DNA from: Bacteroidales bacterium
Lineage (GTDB): Bacteria > Bacteroidota > Bacteroidia > Bacteroidales > B39-G9
NCBI GenBank assembly: GCA_023133485.1
Contig: JAGLWK010000038.1
Coordinates: 25,352-89,351, forward strand
Length of the DNA stretch: 64,000 bases
Reading direction: 5' to 3'
Shown here: positions 24,860-35,042 of the stretch, in pieces
Position numbering within the stretch: position 1 is the first letter of the stretch
How the letters are laid out: every line of letters starts with the position of its first letter
Program-made: the position numbers and the translations under genes
Notes under the pieces: generated by a model
The model's input: the letters and a program-made list of their open reading frames with translations, nothing else
What the model was told of the DNA's origin: nothing
Database searches by the model: none

Positions 24860-25951
24860 ATGAAGAAAAAAATATTTATAATATTAATATATATTTTATT
24901 ATCAATACATTCGTATTCACAAGCACCAAAATACAGTAATGAATTTCTTGCAATTGGTGTTGGTGCTAGATCGCTTGCAATGGCAAATTCAACGGTTGCT
25001 TGTGTTAATGATATAACTTCAACCTACTGGAATCCTTCAGGTTTATTATTAATTTCAGATGACTGGCAAATTGGAGCTATGCACTCTGAATATTTTGCAG
25101 GTATTGCCAAATACGATTATTTTTCAGGTGCATACAGGATTAACGAAGAACGTTCATTTGGATTTTCAGTAATTCGATTTGGTGTTGATGATATTCCTAA
25201 TACTCTTGAATTAATTGATAATGACGGAAATATTCGTTACGACCGCATAAAATCATTTTCGGTTGCTGATTATGCTTTACTGTTTTCTTATGCAAGCAAA
25301 TCAAAAATTGAAGGTTTAAGATACGGAGGAAATGTAAAAATAATCAGAAGAATAGCCGGAGAGTTTGCTTCTGCATGGGGATTTGGTTTTGATGTTTCGG
25401 CACAGTACGATATGGGAAAATGGAATTTTGGTGCTATTGGGCGTGATATTACTTCAACATTCAATGCATGGAGTTTCAATACATCTGAACTTGAAGATGT
25501 TTTTATATTAACAGGAAATGAAATTCCATCTAATTCACTTGAGATTACTTTACCAAAACTAATTCTCGGTGCTGCACGTAATTTTGATATTTCAGATAAG
25601 TTCAAAGCTATTGCAGAAATTGATATTGATATTACTTCCGACAGAAAAAGAAATGTTTTAATAAAATCAAACCCTTTTAGTATTGACCCGCACATTGGTG
25701 GTGAAATTGGATATAAAAATACAGTATTTTTCAGGGCAGGAATAGGTAATATTCAAAAAGAGCCTGATTTTGATGAAAAAAATTCATTAAGTTTTCAACC
25801 AAATATAGGTATTGGAATAAAAATAGACTATCTTATTATTGATTATGCCCTTACTGACGTAGGTGATGTGTCTATTGCTTTATATTCCCATATCTTTTCA
25901 TTAAAGTATTCTATTAATAAAAAAATAGTAGCAACAAATATTGATAGGTGA
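24860..25951 (+). CDS. PorV/PorQ-family outer-membrane beta-barrel protein
   Basis: Signal peptide, then FLAIGVGARSLAMANSTVACVNDITSTYWNPSGL, the family's N-terminal signature as I recall it. Beta-strand periodicity throughout. Confidence 0.55.
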   Translation: MKKKIFIILIYILLSIHSYSQAPKYSNEFLAIGVGARSLAMANSTVACVNDITSTYWNPSGLLLISDDWQIGAMHSEYFAGIAKYDYFSGAYRINEERSFGFSVIRFGVDDIPNTLELIDNDGNIRYDRIKSFSVADYALLFSYASKSKIEGLRYGGNVKIIRRIAGEFASAWGFGFDVSAQYDMGKWNFGAIGRDITSTFNAWSFNTSELEDVFILTGNEIPSNSLEITLPKLILGAARNFDISDKFKAIAEIDIDITSDRKRNVLIKSNPFSIDPHIGGEIGYKNTVFFRAGIGNIQKEPDFDEKNSLSFQPNIGIGIKIDYLIIDYALTDVGDVSIALYSHIFSLKYSINKKIVATNIDR

Positions 25952-25987: not shown

Positions 25988-27286
25988 CTAATGATTCTTT
26001 TTTATTAAGGATATTATTGGATTAAGTATTCTTTGTGATAATCTTAGGTTTTCAGTTATTATTTCGGCATTTCCAAACATTTCCTGGCTAAATTTCAATT
26101 GTTTTCCATAATTTGTTAATAAACCTTCAGGTAATTCTACTTCAACAAGATAAGTCTGATCATTGGGAACTAATGAAATTGAACTCACAATGCCTTTAAC
26201 CATACCATATTCCATATGCGGATAACTAATGAATTTAATATTAACAATTTGACCTGTTTTTACTTTACCCGACCCTGCTAATGGTAAATCTAACTTGCCA
26301 ATAATTTTAGTTGAATCCAAAGGTATAATTGTAAAAACATTTTCACCTGCTATAACATTTTGATTTACACTCCAATATCTGTTAAAAGTAATAATACCTT
26401 TTATAGGTGCTTTAAGCATATATTTTTGTTTCCATACAGATAATTGTGCTTTTAAATTATTGTATGACTCTGAAATAGCCATTTGCATTCTATTTTGTTC
26501 ATCGTTAAAATTTAACTCTAATTCTAATATTGATTGCTTATAATTTGCAATTTGGATTTTAGTATTAGCCAAAGTTGATTGTGAACCTTCAAAAGCATAT
26601 TGTTTTTGTAATAATACACTTTCTGAATTTTCAAATTCTACATCTGAAATTACTTTTTGTTCAAATAAATGTTTTGAGCGTTCAAAATCCTTTTTTGCTA
26701 TTTGATATTCTTTTTCAAGAATATTTCGTTGCAGGGAAAGATGATCGTAATACAAATGTGACATTGCTATCTGTTCATTAACCGATTCTATTTTTTTAGG
26801 ATAATAATTTAACTCAAACAAATTTTTATAATCAGTATAAGCTTTTAAAAATGAAGAAAAGAAAGATTGGATTTCGCCAAATTCAAAATCTTTTATCAGA
26901 AATTGTATTACTGAAGTATCGTATATGTTAATTAAAGGTTTTAACGAATCTAAAGTTTTATCAATAAAAATAATATCATTAAAATTAGCAGGATTCTCAA
27001 TAACAGCTAATAGCTGGTTGTATTGTACATTTTGAGAATCTTTAACAAAAAGATGTTCAATTCTGCCGTTTGTTTTTGCAACAAGTTCAGCAGGAGGATT
27101 TTCTGTTGTAATAATGATATTTGACTGGATTACATCAGGATATTTAAAAAACCAACTGCCAATTAGTAATACTATTATAACAACAAATATTGCACTTATC
27201 CCGGAACGAACCATCCATGAAGGAATATGCCCGAGTATTTCCTGTACTTCTTCGCTTCGTATTTCTATTTTATTTTTTTCTTCCAT
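25988..27286 (-). CDS. HlyD-family membrane fusion (adaptor) protein of the bacteriocin exporter
   Basis: N-terminal TM helix, long coiled-coil middle, C-terminal beta-barrel region. Downstream of the C39-ABC exporter on the same strand. Confidence 0.85.
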   Translation of the reverse strand: MEEKNKIEIRSEEVQEILGHIPSWMVRSGISAIFVVIIVLLIGSWFFKYPDVIQSNIIITTENPPAELVAKTNGRIEHLFVKDSQNVQYNQLLAVIENPANFNDIIFIDKTLDSLKPLINIYDTSVIQFLIKDFEFGEIQSFFSSFLKAYTDYKNLFELNYYPKKIESVNEQIAMSHLYYDHLSLQRNILEKEYQIAKKDFERSKHLFEQKVISDVEFENSESVLLQKQYAFEGSQSTLANTKIQIANYKQSILELELNFNDEQNRMQMAISESYNNLKAQLSVWKQKYMLKAPIKGIITFNRYWSVNQNVIAGENVFTIIPLDSTKIIGKLDLPLAGSGKVKTGQIVNIKFISYPHMEYGMVKGIVSSISLVPNDQTYLVEVELPEGLLTNYGKQLKFSQEMFGNAEIITENLRLSQRILNPIISLIKKNH

Positions 27287-27491: not shown

Positions 27492-27545
27492 ATAATTTGA
27501 CGCAGATATAACTGATAAATTATGATTTGTTATGATTTTTATATT
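27492..27545. repeat. 54-nt direct repeat, copy 2 (overlaps the GxxExxY gene stop and last codons)
   Basis: See 27285-27338. Confidence 0.85.
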
Positions 27546-27921
27546 CTTCTGTTAATACTCTTCTTTTATATTGCGGTTTTGTACCAAAATTTAATAATAA
27601 ACCTACTTCGATTTCTGTAGCTTTTAAATAATTTACTAACTGTACTTCATGTTCGGGTACAATATTTTCAACTGCTTTAAGTTCAATAATAACTTTGTTT
27701 TCAACAATAATATCAGCATAGTAATCTCCAACTAATTGTTCATTATAATAGACTCTTATTGGTTTCTGTTTTTCACAAATTAATCCAAAACTTTTCAATT
27801 CAATTAACATTGCATTTTCATAAACTTTTTCTAAAAAGCCATAACCTAATTGATTAAAAACATTAAAATAAGCTTTTAATATCTTGCTTGTTACATCTGT
27901 ATGTAAATAATTTGATTTCAT
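27520..27921 (-). CDS. GxxExxY family protein (PD-(D/E)xK nuclease-like fold)
   Basis: 133 aa. GYGFLEKVYENAM (GxxExxY), D..ADIIVENKVIIELK (D-x(n)-E-x-K), and QLVNYLKATEIEVGLLLNFG, all typical of this family. Confidence 0.85.
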   Translation of the reverse strand: MKSNYLHTDVTSKILKAYFNVFNQLGYGFLEKVYENAMLIELKSFGLICEKQKPIRVYYNEQLVGDYYADIIVENKVIIELKAVENIVPEHEVQLVNYLKATEIEVGLLLNFGTKPQYKRRVLTEEYKNHNKS

Positions 27922-27938
27922 TATTGATAATTTTTTAT

Positions 27939-28140
27939 GTTTAGACGCAAATAAACAATAATTATTTTACTTTATTTACAATAATAATCATAATTATCTT
28001 TAAAAATCAGTATATAATTTTAAGTTTGAAAAATTTTCTAAAAAGCTATAAACGAATTAATTAAAAATATTAAAAGATATCTTTAAAATAAAAACAAATC
28101 AGTGTAAATCATAAAAATCATAAAAAATCAGCGTCTAATT
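27939..28140. repeat. second inverted-repeat element of the GACGCA/AATCAGCGTC word family
   Basis: Left arm TTTAGACGCAAATAAACA begins at 27939. The right arm at 28097-28140 is almost identical to the right arm at 27409-27452. Confidence 0.65.
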
Positions 28141-28155
28141 TCCAAGTTCTAATTG
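28095..28155. repeat. 61-nt direct repeat, copy B (overlaps the true 3' end of the ABC exporter gene)
   Basis: See 27408-27468. Confidence 0.8.
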
Positions 28156-30402
28156 ATTTTTAACTAAGTTATAATATGCTCCTTTTTTGTTAGTTAATTC
28201 TTTATGAGTTCCCTGTTCAACAATTTTTCCTTTTTCTAATACTACTATTTGGTCGGCATTTTTAACAGTGCTTAACCTGTGAGCTACAATAACAACTGTT
28301 TTACCTTTAAAAAATTCGTCAAGGTTATTCATAATCACTTTTTCATTGTTTGCATCAAGTGAATTTGTAGCCTCATCAAAAAATAAATATTCAGGGTTTT
28401 TATAAATTGCACGGGCTATTAATATCCTTTGTTTTTGTCCCTGACTTAAACCATGTCCTTCCTGACCTATTTTTGTATTATACCCTAAAGGTAAACTGTC
28501 AATAAATTCTTGAATATTAGCAACTTTAACAGCATTTAACAATTTATTTTTATCTATAATTTCATCGCTAACTGCAATGTTTTTTGCAATAGTATCTGAA
28601 AAAATAAAACCATCCTGCATTACAGCACCACATTTTGCCCGCCAGCTACGATTACTGAAATTTTCAAGCCTTGTTTCACCGAGTTTTATTTCTCCTTTTA
28701 CAGGCGGATAAAAACCAAGCATAAGTTTAACAAGTGTAGTTTTTCCGCTTCCGCTTGTACCTACAATAGCAGTAATTTTACTTGCAGGAACCTCTATGTC
28801 TATGTTATCTATTACCATTTCGGAATGCGGACCTTCGTATTGAAAATGAAGATTTGATATGTTAATATTTTCATTTACAGGGATATCTGAAATTTTTGTA
28901 TCATCAATATCTTCTTCATCGTCTTTGTTGTGGATTTCGCCAAGACGTTCAAGACTTATTTTAGCATCCTGAGTTGACTGGAAAAAACCTAACATTTGGT
29001 CGATAGGACTATTTAACTGTCCGATAATATATTGTACCGCCAGCATCATACCAAGTGTCATATCACCACTTATTACTGAAGTTGCTGCTATTATTGTAAT
29101 AATTATGTTTTTTGTTTCGTTTACTAATACCGAACCTGCTTGCTGATATTGATTAAGAGATAAACTTTTAATATTTACTTTAAATAATTTTGCCTGAATA
29201 CTTTCCCATTCCCAGCGTTTCTGTTTTTCGCAGTTATTCAGCTTTATCTCCTGCATACCCGTAATTAATTGTATTATATTACTTTGGTTATCAGACATTT
29301 GTGCAAAACGTTTAAAATCTAAAGTCCTGCGTTTTTTCATGAAGATATTTATCCAAAGTATATATATTGTACTACCGATAATAAAAACAGCAAGTATTTT
29401 TAAGCTGTAAATTGCAAGCACGATACCAAAAATAACAAGGTTAACAAACGAAAATAAAATATTTAACGAGGATGAGGTAAGAAAACTTTCAATACGGCGG
29501 TGGTCTTGTATTCTTTGCATAAGGTCGCCAATCATCTTGGTATCGAAAAAACCTATGGGCAGTTTCATTAATTTTATCAGGAAATCTGAAATAAGCGATA
29601 TATTTATTCGGGTGCTTATATGCAAAAGTATCCAACTGCGAATAAAGTCAACGGTTGAACGGCTAATGGTTAATACAAGCTGGGCAATTAGTACAAGATA
29701 TATAAAATTCAGATTTTGATTATTAATACCAAAATCAACAACCGATTGTGTAAGAAAGGGGAAAATAAGTTGCAGCAAACTTCCAAGTAACATACCCAGC
29801 ATTAATTGAGTAATAAACTTACCATGTGGCTTTAGATATGAGAAAAGAAATTTAAAGCCTGACTTGTTTAATTTTTCATCGTCTGTTTTATAAAAATCGG
29901 GGGCAGGTTCTAATAAAAGACAAAGTCCTTTATCTTCTCCTTCTTTTTTTGTACTGAGCCAGCAATTGAGAAATTCTTTTTTTGTATATTTTACATGACC
30001 ATGTCCCGGGTCGGCAACATAAACATTACAATCGTCATTACGAACCGCAGGCGAAGTAATCTCTTTATTTGTATAGTATTGTTTCTGTTTTAACCCTCGC
30101 AATGACGAGCGTTTTTTTATTTTATAAACAACAACAAAATGATTTTGTTTCCAGTGAACAATACAAGGCAAAGGAGATTCGTTTTCAAGCTGCTCAAAAG
30201 TTATTCTAACTCCTTTTGTACGCATACCAATACTTTCGGCAGCATCGCTGATGCCAAGCATTGATACACCTTCGCGGGTAATAAAACTTCTGCCACGTAA
30301 AGTTTGTAAATTATATGTTTTCCCATAATACTTTGCTATCATGCGCAGGCAGGCGGGGCCGCAGTCCATGGCGTCTAATTGTTTGTAAAAGGGAAAGCTC
30401 AT
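28135..30402 (-). CDS. peptidase C39 domain-containing ABC transporter (double-glycine leader-cleaving bacteriocin/RiPP exporter)
   Basis: N-terminal C39 motif QLDAMDCGPACLRMI, with His in HWKQNHFVV and ADPGHG. Six-TM domain, Walker A GTSGSGKTT, signature LSQGQKQR, Walker B LFFDEATSALD-like (LFFDEATNSLD). Confidence 0.9.
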   Translation of the reverse strand: MSFPFYKQLDAMDCGPACLRMIAKYYGKTYNLQTLRGRSFITREGVSMLGISDAAESIGMRTKGVRITFEQLENESPLPCIVHWKQNHFVVVYKIKKRSSLRGLKQKQYYTNKEITSPAVRNDDCNVYVADPGHGHVKYTKKEFLNCWLSTKKEGEDKGLCLLLEPAPDFYKTDDEKLNKSGFKFLFSYLKPHGKFITQLMLGMLLGSLLQLIFPFLTQSVVDFGINNQNLNFIYLVLIAQLVLTISRSTVDFIRSWILLHISTRINISLISDFLIKLMKLPIGFFDTKMIGDLMQRIQDHRRIESFLTSSSLNILFSFVNLVIFGIVLAIYSLKILAVFIIGSTIYILWINIFMKKRRTLDFKRFAQMSDNQSNIIQLITGMQEIKLNNCEKQKRWEWESIQAKLFKVNIKSLSLNQYQQAGSVLVNETKNIIITIIAATSVISGDMTLGMMLAVQYIIGQLNSPIDQMLGFFQSTQDAKISLERLGEIHNKDDEEDIDDTKISDIPVNENINISNLHFQYEGPHSEMVIDNIDIEVPASKITAIVGTSGSGKTTLVKLMLGFYPPVKGEIKLGETRLENFSNRSWRAKCGAVMQDGFIFSDTIAKNIAVSDEIIDKNKLLNAVKVANIQEFIDSLPLGYNTKIGQEGHGLSQGQKQRILIARAIYKNPEYLFFDEATNSLDANNEKVIMNNLDEFFKGKTVVIVAHRLSTVKNADQIVVLEKGKIVEQGTHKELTNKKGAYYNLVKNQLELGN
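30033..30107. repeat. 75-nt palindromic element inserted in frame (25 codons) in the C39 peptidase domain
   Basis: Terminal inverted repeats CGTCATTACGA (30033-30043) and TCGCAATGACG (30097-30107). Locally GC-richer. Encodes SSLRGLKQKQYYTNKEITSPAVRND between the conserved VVVYKIKK and VYVADPGHG blocks. Confidence 0.6.
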
Positions 30403-31469
30403 TTTGTAGTAATTCCTTCTTTTATACTTTCTTCAACTGTTTTATATCCCTCTTGTCCTTTCCATTTAGCAATATATGGATTATAATTGCATTTGGCAGG
30501 TTGTGAATATATGTTTTTTGGGTCTTTAATAAAGACTCTGCAATCAGTACACATATATCTAAATTCACAGTCTTTACATACTTCAATTTTATCTTTATGA
30601 ATGTGCCATAAATCTTTAAATCCGGGTTTTTCAATTGCTTCTTTTAAAGTAATATCTTTTATATTGCCATAATCTTTTTCGATTGCTGGACAGTTTTTTA
30701 TGAAACCATTTTCATCTATACTTGCTTTGCGATTTAAACAAGTATTGTATTTTTTAGATTCTGAAAAAAATGTCAAATTAGTTGAAAAATATTCTGGTGA
30801 AACATATCCACAATGATCTTTGTCTATAATGTTTTTTAAAAAAATAATATCTGTTTTTTGATTTTTATTCATTGGTTTAATTAAAAAATCATTTGAAGAA
30901 AAAATAATTATTTTCTGTAGTCTAGGAAAACTATATGCAATTTCAACTAAATTATTCATAGAAGTTTCTTGTGAATATTTTAATACTAGTTCAATTGAGT
31001 TAATACTTGTTTTTGTAACTTCAAGTAAAATATCTTTTAATTTATGAAAGTTTATTGAAGTATAAAATCTTAGCTGAATATGCTTACAAAAAAGTTTATC
31101 TAACTGAAATAATACAGTTTTTAATATATCAATATTTGAATATTCAATTATAGCGTTTGTTATATATGAAGGAAACTGCCAATCAATTGATATATCAGGA
31201 AAATAGTCTAATTCATGTGCTTCACAAATAAATACTAATTTTTTGTCAATTAAATAATTAAAGTATTCATCAATTATTTCATTATGTTCATTACCAAAAG
31301 CTTTCTTTATTTCTTTAAGAGATTTATCTTTATATTCAGTTAAAATATCAAATAAAATATTTGGAATAAAAAAATATTCATGTTTTAAAAAATCTATAAT
31401 AAGACTGCGTCGCCATCCCTTTACATGTATGCAATCAGCATATAATTTATAAAAAATTTTCATTTTCAA
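30399..31469 (-). CDS. SPASM-domain peptide maturase lacking a canonical radical-SAM cluster motif
   Basis: C-terminal C244-x10-G-x4-C260, C298-x2-C301-x5-C307-x2-C310 and C327, seven Cys in SPASM spacing. The first 240 residues hold only 4 isolated Cys and no CxxxCxxC. Has a 4-nt stop/start overlap with the exporter gene. Confidence 0.8.
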   Translation of the reverse strand: MKMKIFYKLYADCIHVKGWRRSLIIDFLKHEYFFIPNILFDILTEYKDKSLKEIKKAFGNEHNEIIDEYFNYLIDKKLVFICEAHELDYFPDISIDWQFPSYITNAIIEYSNIDILKTVLFQLDKLFCKHIQLRFYTSINFHKLKDILLEVTKTSINSIELVLKYSQETSMNNLVEIAYSFPRLQKIIIFSSNDFLIKPMNKNQKTDIIFLKNIIDKDHCGYVSPEYFSTNLTFFSESKKYNTCLNRKASIDENGFIKNCPAIEKDYGNIKDITLKEAIEKPGFKDLWHIHKDKIEVCKDCEFRYMCTDCRVFIKDPKNIYSQPAKCNYNPYIAKWKGQEGYKTVEESIKEGITTK

Positions 31470-31641
31470 AATTAATGAATGTACATATCAGTTTATAGAA
31501 ATTTCTAATTTTGGAAACTTCACTTTGTTTTTTCTGGATTTTATCAAGCTTATTACTCAAATTATCACTACCTACACTTATTATATTATTAAATAATGGT
31601 GGCAGTATTGGATAATATGTTTTTTTATTTAATGTTTTCAT
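31447..31641 (-). CDS. small coupled ORF of unknown function (64 aa)
   Basis: The start overlaps the ATP-grasp stop by 4 nt and the end overlaps the SPASM gene start by 23 nt. It fills the otherwise empty gap exactly. No recognisable motif. Confidence 0.4.
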   Translation of the reverse strand: MKTLNKKTYYPILPPLFNNIISVGSDNLSNKLDKIQKKQSEVSKIRNFYKLICTFINFENENFL

Positions 31642-32606
31642 ATTAATTTCTCAGCAATTTTCATTTCCAGATTATAATTACATAATTCAGAAACATTTTG
31701 AAAAATACCTACAGGATTTACTTCTAAAAAAACAAACTCATTTGAAGTTGAATAAATCATATCAATACCTCCACAATCAATTTGCATTCGTTTCATTAAT
31801 ATACATAGCTTATTCCTAATATCTTCAGGCAACCTGAAAGGAACTGATCTAATATCAGTAATATCTCCTGCCCTATAATCAATAGAATTATTTTTATTTT
31901 CTTTTGAAAAAATAGCACAAGAATAGAACTCATTATCAATAAAAAATGTCCTTATTTCATGCTTTTTTTCTATTTTTTTTTGTATTAAAGTAGGGAAAAG
32001 CAAGCCTGATATTGAAGGTTCAGGAATATTTATGTACCCAGTTCGAGAAACATAATAAGCCTTTTTTTCGGTATAAGAAAATACTTCTTGTATAGGTTTT
32101 GTTATATATTTTTTATTTTTAGTATATTTTTTTAATACTTCTTTTTCAGTAACTACACTGGTATTTGGAATTGAAAGTCCGCACTCTTGTGCATATTCAA
32201 GTTGCATTAATTTATTAGGAAAACCTGTAAAAAAATTACCAACATGTTTTTTTATTTGTATTAAATGAAAAATATATTCTTTCAATATATACCACTCTCT
32301 ATTAAGAAAAGTTTCTATTTCTTTATCTATATTATCTAGGGGTATTTTAAAATATTCTCCAAATAAGTTAGGAAGAATTCCATTTCGTATCCAAACGGAA
32401 TATATATCAGATAATTTAAAATGGCTATTATTAACAATTAATTCTATATCAATGCCCACACGTTTTGAGAGAATATTTAAGTAACTAAAATTAAAATCAG
32501 TTGTAGGTGTTATTCTTATAATTTGTTTTCCTAAGAAATGAAGATGGTCAATAACACTATCAACGTCTGGGTCAAAATCTTTAGATATAATAAGAATAAT
32601 GCTCAT
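31638..32606 (-). CDS. ATP-grasp peptide maturase (RiPP macrolactone/lactam ligase-like)
   Basis: C-terminal ATP-grasp pattern HEIRTFFIDNEFYSCAIF...IDYRAGD...GGIDMIYSTSNEFVFLEVNPVGIF. The N-terminal ILIISKDFDPDVDSVIDHL pre-ATP-grasp region resembles that of RiPP ATP-grasp ligases. Confidence 0.75.
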   Translation of the reverse strand: MSIILIISKDFDPDVDSVIDHLHFLGKQIIRITPTTDFNFSYLNILSKRVGIDIELIVNNSHFKLSDIYSVWIRNGILPNLFGEYFKIPLDNIDKEIETFLNREWYILKEYIFHLIQIKKHVGNFFTGFPNKLMQLEYAQECGLSIPNTSVVTEKEVLKKYTKNKKYITKPIQEVFSYTEKKAYYVSRTGYINIPEPSISGLLFPTLIQKKIEKKHEIRTFFIDNEFYSCAIFSKENKNNSIDYRAGDITDIRSVPFRLPEDIRNKLCILMKRMQIDCGGIDMIYSTSNEFVFLEVNPVGIFQNVSELCNYNLEMKIAEKLI

Positions 32607-33823
32607 TTGACATATTTAATTATATTTATATTTTTAATATTTCTAATTTCCGTTAAACCATCAATAGTAAGCACTATATTAATGCCTTTTTCATTATATA
32701 AATTAACTTTTTCAAAATATATTTGATCAGATGTTAGGTAATATTTTTCAACACGAGCTTGTGCTGAAAATTGAAACCAAAATTTATAATCATCTCCTAA
32801 TTCTCCCTTTTTCTTTTGAATATAAACTGATTTTTTATATTCACTGTCAAAAGAATCTAATCCGATTTTTTTTCTTTCCTCATTGAATTTACTAATATTT
32901 TCCGTATTTATATTATTGTTAAACCATAATTCTTCTAATATTTCTAATGAATTTAAATCAGCTGGAGTTAATTTTTTTGGTCCATTATATCGTATGTATT
33001 TACATATTCCTATTTTTCCAAAAATATTTTTCGGATTGTTATATTCAAGACCATCACGCATAATATACGACGATAATTTACCTTTTTCAATTAAGCTGAT
33101 TAATGCAATAAATAAGCGTTCATCCTTTAATACTTTATTATAAAATTCATAATGTTTATCTTCAGTCTTTACATATATTTTTGCTCTATTCACCATGCCA
33201 AAATAGTGACGAATTAAAACCCATGGTATTATGCTTCGTGTTTTTAATTTTTCAAAATCGAATAATTCAACATCAGGCAGACTATCTGAATTTATTAATT
33301 GCAGCAATCTTAATCCATTTTTATAATATATTTTGTCAATGTAATATTGCATTGTATCATGTTCATATAGTTTTATTGTTTCTTTTTGATCAATATCAAC
33401 TAACTTTTGAAGTATTTTAAATCCTTCAGTATTTGTTTTATTTAAATATATATTTCTTAATGAATCATAAATGAGAACAAGTTTTTTCCACTTTTCTGTA
33501 TTATGAAGAGGTGAAAAAAAAGAACTTTGAAAATAATTTAAAGTATAGCCTTTTAAAACACAGCTATCAATATATTGAAAAGCCCTTTTATATTCTTTCC
33601 TTAGGGTTAGTGCTAAAGCTATATTGTAATTATCAATACCACGGGAAAATTGATGTTTTTTGAAAGAATTTTCATATAAAAATATTGCTTTATTATACTT
33701 ATTATCAATGATATATAATTCGGCATCATTGATATCTTTGAGGTATTGCCCGTGAGAGAAGGATATAAATATAAAAAATATTTTGAAAAATAAAATAATT
33801 TTAAAAACAGGAATAATTTGCAT
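32603..33823 (-). CDS. secreted or membrane-anchored TPR-like protein of unknown function
   Basis: N-terminal hydrophobic signal/anchor (VFKIILFFKIFFIFISFSHG), then helical-repeat-like sequence. Has a 4-nt overlap with the ATP-grasp start. Confidence 0.55.
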   Translation of the reverse strand: MQIIPVFKIILFFKIFFIFISFSHGQYLKDINDAELYIIDNKYNKAIFLYENSFKKHQFSRGIDNYNIALALTLRKEYKRAFQYIDSCVLKGYTLNYFQSSFFSPLHNTEKWKKLVLIYDSLRNIYLNKTNTEGFKILQKLVDIDQKETIKLYEHDTMQYYIDKIYYKNGLRLLQLINSDSLPDVELFDFEKLKTRSIIPWVLIRHYFGMVNRAKIYVKTEDKHYEFYNKVLKDERLFIALISLIEKGKLSSYIMRDGLEYNNPKNIFGKIGICKYIRYNGPKKLTPADLNSLEILEELWFNNNINTENISKFNEERKKIGLDSFDSEYKKSVYIQKKKGELGDDYKFWFQFSAQARVEKYYLTSDQIYFEKVNLYNEKGINIVLTIDGLTEIRNIKNINIIKYVK

Positions 33824-34016: not shown

Positions 34017-34217
34017 TTAATGTCGCAGTCGCCAATTTGTGTATACAATTGCGTCATCACAAAGCCACTCATCAACAGTATAGCATTTCCCACCTGTACA
34101 ATAACCACCAGTCCCTGTAAAAATACATGCTCCTCCTTTTATACTTTTCAAATCAGAAAAACTTAGTTTTTCAAATTTTTTAAACGTATCACTGTTTAAA
34201 CTTTCTAATTTTTTCAT
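34017..34217 (-). CDS. RiPP precursor peptide with double-glycine leader
   Basis: The leader ...LSFSDLKSIKGG fits LSxxELxxIxGG. The 37-aa core is ACIFTGTGGYCTGGKCYTVDEWLCDDAIVYTNWRLRH, with 4 Cys, 5 Thr, 1 Lys and 4 Asp/Glu. It heads the maturase/exporter gene string. Confidence 0.8.
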   Translation of the reverse strand: MKKLESLNSDTFKKFEKLSFSDLKSIKGGACIFTGTGGYCTGGKCYTVDEWLCDDAIVYTNWRLRH

Positions 34218-34406: not shown

Positions 34407-34775
34407 GTGGAATTACACATTGGTATAATAATAAAACAAAGAGTTGATGAATTAGGTATATCCAAAGCCGAATTTGCTCGCCGTATTAATACAACTTCTC
34501 AAAATATTTATGGAATTTTTAAAAGAAAATCAATTGACACTAATTTACTAATAAAAATATCTCAAGTATTAAATCATAATTTTTTTCAGTATTTTACTTC
34601 GTCAGTCATAAAAGTAAAGGAAGAAAAGGAGATGCTCAACTCTAATATTTCAATAGTTGATTTGTCTGATAAGATATCTAATATCGAGAATAAACTACAA
34701 ATAGCTCAAAAAGAAATTTCTTTAAAGGACAAGATTATTTTATTATTGGAAGAAAAAATTGGAAAATCTAAATAA
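34407..34775 (+). CDS. HTH-domain transcriptional regulator with C-terminal coiled coil
   Basis: IKQRVDELGISKAEFARRINTTSQNIYGIFKRKSI is an XRE/Cro-like HTH. GTG start. Divergent from the precursor gene. Confidence 0.6.
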   Translation: MELHIGIIIKQRVDELGISKAEFARRINTTSQNIYGIFKRKSIDTNLLIKISQVLNHNFFQYFTSSVIKVKEEKEMLNSNISIVDLSDKISNIENKLQIAQKEISLKDKIILLLEEKIGKSK

Positions 34776-34793
34776 ATATTCCAAATTTCATTT

Positions 34794-35042
34794 GTGAAAT
34801 ATATCAGAGATAAAATAGGGATTAAGTTATTAGGAAAAAAAATCAGACAATTGCGAAAACAACAAAAAATTTCTCAAAGTCAATTAGCATTTGAATCGGG
34901 TATTCCCAGAAACCAAGTTGTAAGTATTGAGTTAGGAAAAATAAATACTGGAGTAAGTACTATTTTTGTTATTTCAAAAGCTTTAAATATCCACCCCAAA
35001 GAATTGTTAGATTTTGATTATCCTTTGGATTTTCAGGAATGA
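34794..35042 (+). CDS. XRE-family HTH transcriptional regulator
   Basis: LGKKIRQLRKQQKISQSQLAFESGIPRNQVVSIELGK...ISKALNIHPKELL is a canonical XRE HTH. GTG start in the ORF track. Confidence 0.75.
   Translation: MKYIRDKIGIKLLGKKIRQLRKQQKISQSQLAFESGIPRNQVVSIELGKINTGVSTIFVISKALNIHPKELLDFDYPLDFQE

Follow-up and report, generated by a model that had tools for sequence, protein, structure and literature searches.

A SPASM-Domain Protein without a Radical-SAM Motif in a Bacteroidales Gene Cluster Is an Ordinary Member of the Large TIGR04193 Family

Introduction

The closest described relatives of the locus analyzed here are the GwsS/GwsG (TIGR04193/TIGR04192) gene clusters for peptides that are made by the ribosome and modified after translation (RiPPs), in which a SPASM-domain protein is encoded next to an ATP-grasp ligase; among graspetide gene clusters, TIGR04193 is bound strictly to a single branch. 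The strict co-occurrence of the two proteins has been recorded in surveys (PMC8939145; PMC13097080). One of these surveys treats the SPASM protein as a radical S-adenosylmethionine (SAM)/SPASM enzyme that would form thioethers (Makarova et al. 2022, PMC8939145), and the other lists "group 14," which always occurs with a SPASM protein, and reports no characterization of it (PMC13097080). Here, we analyzed a SPASM protein gene of this type, located at 30399–31469 on the minus strand of a 64,000-nucleotide stretch of DNA from a Bacteroidales bacterium (GenBank assembly GCA_023133485.1, contig JAGLWK010000038.1, positions 25,352 to 89,351; hereafter the window, in whose own numbering its features are given). 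A sequence-only reading of the window had described the product as a protein that possesses all seven cysteines of a SPASM domain and lacks the CxxxCxxC motif of radical-SAM enzymes, and had considered each of the roles that it proposed for such a protein unusual for SPASM proteins.

Partner proteins are not without precedent among graspetide systems. Partner-dependent graspetide ligases were demonstrated experimentally in 2026 for other groups, and MirC, a PpiC-type chaperone, is an example of a partner protein on which such ligases can depend (PMC13097080). We found no experimental characterization of TIGR04193 in the searchable literature, and the literature search for SPASM proteins without a radical SAM domain and for pseudo-SPASM proteins returned nothing relevant.

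Family Membership and Absence of the Radical-SAM Motif

By its match to the family profile, the open reading frame (ORF) at 30399–31469 is a GwsS-type (TIGR04193) gene. Counted from a TTG start, the protein has 356 aa, and counted from the ATG at 31463, it has 354 aa; the NCBI protein that is 100% identical to it (P0001) starts two codons later, at this ATG (354 aa), derives from a Bacteroidales metagenome-assembled genome, and is annotated as "grasp-with-spasm system SPASM domain peptide maturase." Against NCBIfam TIGR04193 the window protein scored 324.3 bits (E = 1e-96, cutoff 175), a match far beyond chance in which residues 7–337 correspond to profile positions 2–333 of 342. The score against the generic SPASM model TIGR04085 was 24.8 bits, just below the cutoff of 27, and the Pfam SPASM model PF13186 gave no match to the window protein at E ≤ 1; 49 of 66 relatives did match it, with a best E of 1.2e-7. 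In a scan of one genome per species, relatives occurred in at least 562 genomes, which among the matches listed belonged mostly to Bacteroidota, with Acidobacteriota and Gemmatimonadota also represented, and an exhaustive profile search retrieved 2,236 clusters (50% identity) that match the family profile at E ≤ 1e-30. When assessed by the tests of TIGR04193 membership, the window protein has a full-length score, a TIGR04192 neighbor, and a candidate precursor nearby; it shares the neighborhood, the eight-cysteine pattern, and the lack of CxxxCxxC with the GwsS/GwsG systems and shows no material difference from them. Thus, from the TIGR04193 score, the identical annotated protein, and the size of the family, we concluded that the window SPASM protein is an ordinary member of a large, already named family.

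Translation of the ORF reproduced exactly the coordinates and the cysteine positions of the sequence-only reading (13, 82, 128, 220, 244, 260, 298, 301, 307, 310, and 327), together with the SPASM spacing of the last seven and the absence of CxxxCxxC. The observed spacing is C244-x10-G255-x4-C260, followed by C298-x2-C301-x5-C307-x2-C310 and finally C327; compared with the canonical seven-cysteine motif (CX9-15GX4C … CX2CX5CX3C … C), the last interval is CX2C rather than CX3C. Inspection of the orthologs, which had been suggested as a check, gave the same answer: CxxxCxxC occurred in none of the 265 database proteins and in none of the 84 copies encoded in the loci. In particular, it was absent from the 120 closest database homologs (0/120), which also lack any loose three-cysteine cluster in the first 200 residues, from 145 further cluster representatives (0/145), and from 84 full-length copies encoded in 81 genomic loci (0/84). 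The Pfam models Radical_SAM, Fer4_12, and Fer4_14 matched 0 of 66 aligned members at E ≤ 1, and the radical-SAM models of NCBIfam gave no match to the window protein at E ≤ 0.01. When tested as a radical-SAM (PF04055) family, these proteins lacked the three-cysteine motif, the hidden Markov model match, and the GGE motif with the (beta-alpha)6 partial barrel. Since the SAM-cleaving cluster appears to have been lost, the SPASM protein is presumably unable to initiate radical chemistry by itself.

The absence of the motif is, however, no peculiarity of the window protein, as had been supposed, but the trait that defines TIGR04193, a curated family with a product name that leaves out "radical SAM." NCBIfam also contains TIGR04347, known here by its name, "pseudo-SAM/SPASM protein"; going by this name, it is similar in concept, namely a SPASM protein with a degenerate radical-SAM part, but it is a separate family and gave no match to the window protein at E ≤ 0.01. 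Because the absence is implicit in the curated name of TIGR04193 and because TIGR04347 exists, the lack of a radical-SAM motif is already known at the family level, and what was found in the window is a correctly observed feature of a known family.

Domain Anatomy of the SPASM Protein

The AlphaFold2 (AF2) model of the whole SPASM protein, built with 66 homologs, had a predicted local distance difference test (pLDDT) score of 93.3 and a predicted template modeling (TM) score of 0.86. Foldseek matched it to CteB (5wgg, E 1.9e-6), SuiB (5v1q, E 1.7e-5), anSME (4k37, E 3.7e-3), and EpeE (8ai3, E 2.4e-2), all of which are radical-SAM/SPASM peptide maturases; CteB and SuiB additionally carry an N-terminal RiPP recognition element (RRE). 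These two proteins are the closest in overall fold and have the same domain order of RRE, (beta-alpha) unit, and SPASM domain. In contrast to them, the window protein has neither the CxxxCxxC loop nor GGE, its barrel is reduced to ~110 residues, and sequence similarity outside the SPASM domain is gone.

Residues ~5–90 (31200–31457, minus strand) form a winged helix of four strands and three helices in the AF2 model. When residues 1–98 were modeled alone (pLDDT 93.2), the top ~20 Foldseek matches in the PDB were all RREs, with TM-scores of 0.55–0.73 and root-mean-square deviations of 2.2–2.6 Å. They include TbiB1 (5v1u), the lasso B1 protein 6jx3 (TM 0.65/0.73, 2.2 Å), PbtF (8t19), and the N-terminal domain of CteB, as well as TigE, LynD, McbB, and ThcOx. 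The E-values of these matches were modest (0.02–0.05), as expected for an 80-residue domain, and the match list was uniform. The PqqD model of Pfam (PF05402) matched 0 of 66 members at E ≤ 1; many genuine RREs are also missed by this model. As judged from the model, residues ~5–90 are an RRE and not a part of the barrel.

The RRE is followed at residues ~105–215 (30825–31157, minus strand) by a short (beta-alpha)3-4 unit, which was delineated by AF2 secondary structure and Foldseek and consists of about three beta-alpha units and then three strands. Foldseek searches with the whole model also returned matches of ~100 columns to pieces of TIM barrels and to flavodoxin-like folds, which we assigned to this segment because of their length and fold type (these matches have no residue-level alignment). 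The loop after beta-1, where radical-SAM enzymes hold their cluster, has 3–5 residues in 120/120 members, and a GGE-like motif occurs in the segment in 1/120. Across the family the segment measures 112–126 aa; in the genuine radical-SAM/SPASM maturase encoded in one of the loci (L006), ~225 residues separate the cluster motif from the SPASM domain. The modeled fold suggests that residues ~105–215 are a truncated, degenerate, half-size remnant of a radical-SAM barrel from which the cluster loop was deleted. The proposal that the N-terminal 240 residues are a degenerate TIM barrel thus survived in part: a barrel remnant of ~110 residues may be recognized, but it is preceded by an RRE and the region is not one barrel. 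Residues 220–337 (30459–30812, minus strand) are the SPASM domain with its eight conserved cysteines.

Sequence comparison reached less far than the fold. A search of the family profile against all PDB sequences returned noise only (best E 0.06), and alignment by hhalign to three genuine radical-SAM/SPASM maturases covered the SPASM region alone, with the cysteines in register and a weak E of 0.037. Since this alignment was confined to the SPASM region, it is the fold that carries the suggested radical-SAM descent of the N-terminal part.

Conservation and Two Sets of Cysteines

Conservation differs strongly among the three parts of the protein. At least 90% conservation was observed in 47 of 118 columns of the SPASM module, in 11 of 86 columns of the RRE, and in 2 of 111 columns of the barrel remnant. 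Each of the eight SPASM-domain cysteines (C220–C327) is conserved in 99–100% of the sequences, and 200 of 204 family members show all eight in the full pattern, the spacing of which hardly varies. Two of the four exceptions are single losses, of C244 or of C260. The other two are the paralogs L061:13895-14965 and L077:2620-3654, in which C220, C244, C260, and C310 are all lost and the other four are kept; C298, C301, C307, and C327 were never lost among the 204 members. The co-loss in two paralogs suggests that the eight cysteines are two four-ligand sets, C220/C244/C260/C310 (proposed auxiliary cluster Aux I) and C298/C301/C307/C327 (proposed Aux II). C220 falls in the first set and is therefore not an isolated residue. 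In anSME, the seven SPASM cysteines and one upstream cysteine ligate two auxiliary clusters in the same arrangement. This prototype of the SPASM domain (4k37) has the seven-cysteine motif and one upstream cysteine in common with the window protein; it differs in that the window protein has CX2C and not CX3C, carries its upstream cysteine 23 residues before the motif, and has no radical-SAM cluster.

The sequence-only reading had regarded the first four cysteines as isolated, so that there would be no site for a SAM-cleaving cluster. The latter part held, but the description of the cysteines did not hold for all four: C220 is invariant (100%) and is read here as an auxiliary-cluster ligand, and C13 (96%) and C128 (90%) are also well conserved, with C82 variable (39%). 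We considered C13 and C128 as a third metal site; however, in 17 of 120 members T, V, L, Y, A, or I stands in the place of one of the two, and therefore these residues are not obligatory ligands.

The two Aux I-less copies each have their own upstream ATP-grasp gene and small ORF, and the copy in L077 is a second SPASM copy within its locus. By their cysteines, they look like a "twitch-like" single-cluster subclade.

A Small Protein between the Ligase and the SPASM Protein

Across 82 loci, 80 of 83 cases have the ATP-grasp gene directly upstream of the SPASM gene, usually at a distance of 150–200 bp, and in 70 of 80 loci a small ORF is located within this gap. In the window, the ATP-grasp RiPP ligase (31638–32606, minus strand) is of the GwsG type (TIGR04192, 246.6 bits vs. 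the cutoff of 230) and also weakly matches MvdC/MvdD. The small protein of 64 aa (31447–31641, minus strand) is encoded by a gene that overlaps both the stop codon of the ATP-grasp gene and the start codon of the SPASM gene, and it contains the motifs YYPILPPLF and NFYKLICTF. Among the 70 small proteins, a C-terminal motif F-[YH]-K-P-I-S-[KR]-[IC]-[IF] was found in 54 and an N-terminal motif hP[LVI]x[YF] in 49. These small proteins correspond to the "LPL family," which is always located upstream of the SPASM gene and was proposed to be a PqqD-like chaperone (Makarova et al. 2022, PMC8939145); their N-terminal motif resembles a leader motif that is absent from branch-5 precursors (PMC8939145).

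In two loci, L027:8710-10017 (Thermoanaerobaculum) and L053:8698-10062 (Chitinophaga), a low-complexity linker joins the small protein in frame to the N-terminal end of the SPASM protein, with no stop codon and no ambiguous base. The same fusion was found in the cluster representatives P0140, P0145, P0189, and P0204, making at least six cases in two phyla; we found no mention of such fusions in the literature examined. The fusions place the conserved motif of the small protein one linker away from the RRE, and their recurrence argues for a physical cooperation of the small protein with that end of the SPASM protein which carries the RRE.

Proposed Role and Alternative Explanations

We proposed that the SPASM protein is a non-radical iron–sulfur (Fe-S) partner, or docking subunit, of the ATP-grasp ligase, a role that we consider to have about an even chance of being correct. 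Three alternatives had been offered by the sequence-only reading, namely that the auxiliary clusters are used for non-radical-SAM chemistry, that the protein is a redox or peptide-binding partner of the ATP-grasp enzyme, or that it borrows a radical SAM partner encoded elsewhere; a peptide-binding partner of the ATP-grasp enzyme fits best with the RRE, the gene adjacency, and the fusions, whereas a radical-SAM partner nearby is disfavored. The proposed role resembles those of the RRE-containing noncatalytic partners TbiB1 and 6jx3 (lasso-peptide B1 proteins) and PbtF (8t19, Ocin-ThiF-like) and of MirC, where docking of the peptide and catalysis are likewise divided between a module and a separate enzyme. 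The RRE fold of the window protein matches those of TbiB1, 6jx3, and PbtF with TM-scores of 0.60–0.73; in contrast to the window protein, none of these partners has an Fe-S domain, and MirC is not an RRE/SPASM protein. By analogy, the SPASM protein would work most like the RRE-bearing partner proteins, with an Fe-S domain attached.

In the mechanism that we envisage, the ancestor of the family would have been an RRE-radical-SAM-SPASM maturase that lost its SAM-cleaving cluster and half of its barrel. The present protein would bind two [4Fe-4S] clusters, which may be structural or may also take part in a redox step, and the ATP-grasp ligase would require it as a partner that performs no radical chemistry. 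The small protein would be an adaptor: its C-terminal F-Y-K-P-I-S-K motif probably sits in the RRE in the manner of a leader peptide on a tether, and its N-terminal hPhx[YF] motif probably contacts the ATP-grasp enzyme. The complex would then present the double-glycine-leader precursor for side-chain ester or amide macrocyclization, after which the leader would be cleaved and the peptide exported by the C39-ABC/HlyD system. The most specific form of this proposal, in which GwsS is a radical-SAM-derived pseudoenzyme that has kept the RRE and both Fe-S clusters and works in an obligate three-part complex with the adaptor and the ATP-grasp ligase, is put forward tentatively, at somewhat less than an even chance.

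Several points weigh against such a partner role. Conservation is by far the highest in the SPASM module, which includes the invariant polar residues E237, K248, K292, E302, R304, and D309; such a pattern would be less typical of a passive scaffold than of an active site or a highly specific interface. The Fe-S content, two [4Fe-4S] clusters, is predicted from cysteine conservation. Descent from a radical-SAM enzyme is suggested by a fold similarity with a modest TM-score of 0.43, and neither the profile search nor hhalign detected any similarity to radical-SAM sequences left in the N-terminal 240 residues. Moreover, the RRE could bind the leader of the precursor and not the small protein.

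If the proposal is true, RiPP biosynthesis would offer here the first example of a radical-SAM/SPASM scaffold that has been put to use as a non-radical partner, possibly with a new step that depends on Fe-S clusters, and the survey label of "radical SAM" tailoring would be wrong for more than 2,000 protein clusters. The data indicate that the protein is unable to act as the thioether-forming radical SAM enzyme of the 2022 survey, which changes the product prediction for these gene clusters to ester or amide macrocycles without radical cross-links. The family is very large and still goes under the label of a radical SAM enzyme in the literature, which makes its function a moderately interesting question.

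Radical-SAM proteins and precursor peptides near these loci bear on several other explanations. No ORF of at least 150 aa in the 64-kb window contains CxxxCxxC, and five radical-SAM-like ORFs were found within ~9 kb across the 82 loci. As candidate partners, two of the five were rejected as the housekeeping genes HemN and MtaB, and the other three as complete radical-SAM/SPASM RiPP maturases with SPASM domains of their own. The precursor search was heuristic, and the fraction of cysteine-free cores that it gave is approximate: among 48 candidate double-glycine-leader precursors in 37 loci, 17 (35%) have cysteine-free cores, and in L047 (three precursors) and L032 (two precursors) every detected precursor is cysteine-free.

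An artifact, whether an error in sequencing, a frameshift, or a misassigned start codon, has practically no chance of being the reason for the absence of the motif. We found no point in its support; in-frame stop codons directly upstream of the ORF close the frame, and therefore no longer N-terminus is possible; the motif-free relatives (0/265 and 0/84) also refute it, and the same architecture recurs in 2,236 clusters of proteins and in the genomes of at least 562 species. A noncanonical SAM cluster assembled from dispersed cysteines, as in Dph2-type enzymes, with C13, C128, and another ligand, would agree with the 96% and 90% conservation of these two residues; however, there are two such cysteines in all, they are located in different modules (RRE and barrel remnant), and one of them is replaced in 17 of 120 members, which makes this cluster highly improbable. 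We give a very slim chance to a split enzyme, in which the SPASM protein would supply the SPASM half to a radical-SAM protein encoded elsewhere in the genome. A separate radical-SAM/SPASM maturase is indeed located nearby in 3 of 82 loci, and the 64-kb window leaves the rest of the genome as a possible location of the partner; but these three neighbors already have their own SPASM domains, 79 of 82 loci have no such neighbor within ~9 kb, the window has no ORF of at least 150 aa with CxxxCxxC, and within the SPASM protein conservation is lowest in the barrel remnant. The formation of thioether or disulfide links on precursor cysteines, which is the role suggested by published surveys that call the protein a radical SAM/SPASM enzyme, has a slim chance. 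It is favored by the four cysteines in the core of the window precursor and by conserved cysteines in many branch-5 precursors (Makarova et al. 2022, PMC8939145), but there is no SAM-cleaving site in the family, and 17 of 48 cores, among them all precursors of L047 and L032, lack cysteine. Since the SPASM protein is present in all loci, including those with cysteine-free precursors, its conserved role is not the formation of thioethers or disulfides on cysteine.

The main rival explanation, that the SPASM protein is a tailoring enzyme, deserves more weight, and we nevertheless consider it unlikely. Here, the auxiliary [4Fe-4S] clusters would perform non-radical-SAM chemistry, of a redox or Lewis-acid type, and the RRE would only recruit the substrate. 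This model is favored by the extreme conservation of the SPASM region, where some charged residues are invariant; the retention of all eight cysteines in 200 of 204 members points in the same direction, and the RRE implies direct handling of a peptide. Conversely, the two divergent copies without Aux I, which probably represent one subclade, still adjoin an ATP-grasp gene and a small ORF, and no conserved redox partner was seen in the gene neighborhoods examined. In addition, the precursor cores share no residue beyond the Ser/Thr/Asp/Glu needed by the ligase, and 35% of them have no cysteine. To our knowledge, there is no precedent for catalysis by a SPASM domain alone.

Three of the loci, as mentioned above, contain a complete radical-SAM/SPASM maturase within a few kilobases of the grasp-with-SPASM genes (L006:9021-10367, L027:2054-3496, and L064:3399-4730). 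The maturases of L006 and L027 are TIGR04463-like, and L064 also has extra cysteine-rich peptides with double-glycine leaders. These loci may be hybrid or adjacent RiPP clusters.

Gene Neighborhood

The SPASM gene of the window is part of a tightly packed minus-strand operon in which several neighbors overlap by 4 bp. At its upstream end, a precursor peptide of 66 aa is encoded at 34017–34217 (minus strand), with a double-glycine leader (MKKLESL...SIKGG) followed by the core ACIFTGTGGYCTGGKCYTVDEWLCDDAIVYTNWRLRH. Its match to TIGR04149 was weak (21.6 bits, below the cutoff of 25), and jackhmmer tied it to precursors in 25 loci. Next, a 406-aa protein with a hydrophobic N-terminus is encoded at 32603–33823 (minus strand), overlapping the ATP-grasp gene. 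This protein matched no NCBIfam or Pfam family, and its homologs are located upstream of the ATP-grasp gene in ~24 loci; by position and features, it is probably the predicted secreted or lipoprotein auxiliary protein "cluster 23" of Makarova et al. (PMC8939145).

On the downstream side, an ABC exporter with a C39 peptidase domain (28135–30402, minus strand; Peptidase_C39, ABC_membrane, and ABC_tran) overlaps the stop codon of the SPASM gene by 4 bp, and such an exporter lies directly downstream of the SPASM gene in ~28 loci. As predicted from its domains, it would cleave the leader at the double glycine and export the peptide. The export system also includes an HlyD-family membrane fusion protein (25988–27286, minus strand), identified by profile match.

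The Peptidase_C39 match of the exporter ends at residue 99 (profile position 99 of 133) and is followed at residues ~100–125 by a stretch of ~25 residues, SSLRGLKQKQYYTNKEITSPAVRNDDCN, which resembles an insertion ahead of the remaining peptidase domain. Between the exporter and HlyD genes, a 133-aa GxxExxY protein (TIGR04256, 136.7 bits) is encoded at 27520–27921 (minus strand), which looks like an unrelated small insertion in the export module. Next after the HlyD gene, on the plus strand at 24860–25951, is a gene for a PorV2-type outer-membrane protein of the type IX sorting system (NF052325, 499 bits), which may or may not form the outer-membrane part of the export route. Two small genes for regulators of the helix-turn-helix (HTH)/XRE type, at 34407–35042 on the plus strand, are divergent from the precursor gene and are possible local regulators of the cluster.

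In Aquimarina sp. MAR_2010_214 (L001, 1–13400), the whole cassette, consisting of precursor, 582-aa protein, ATP-grasp ligase, small protein, and SPASM protein, lies inside the suf operon for Fe-S assembly, with SufB, SufC, and SufD upstream of it and a SufS-like aminotransferase, SufE, and an FeS_assembly_P gene downstream. This placement may be a coincidence or may reflect a link to the supply of Fe-S clusters.

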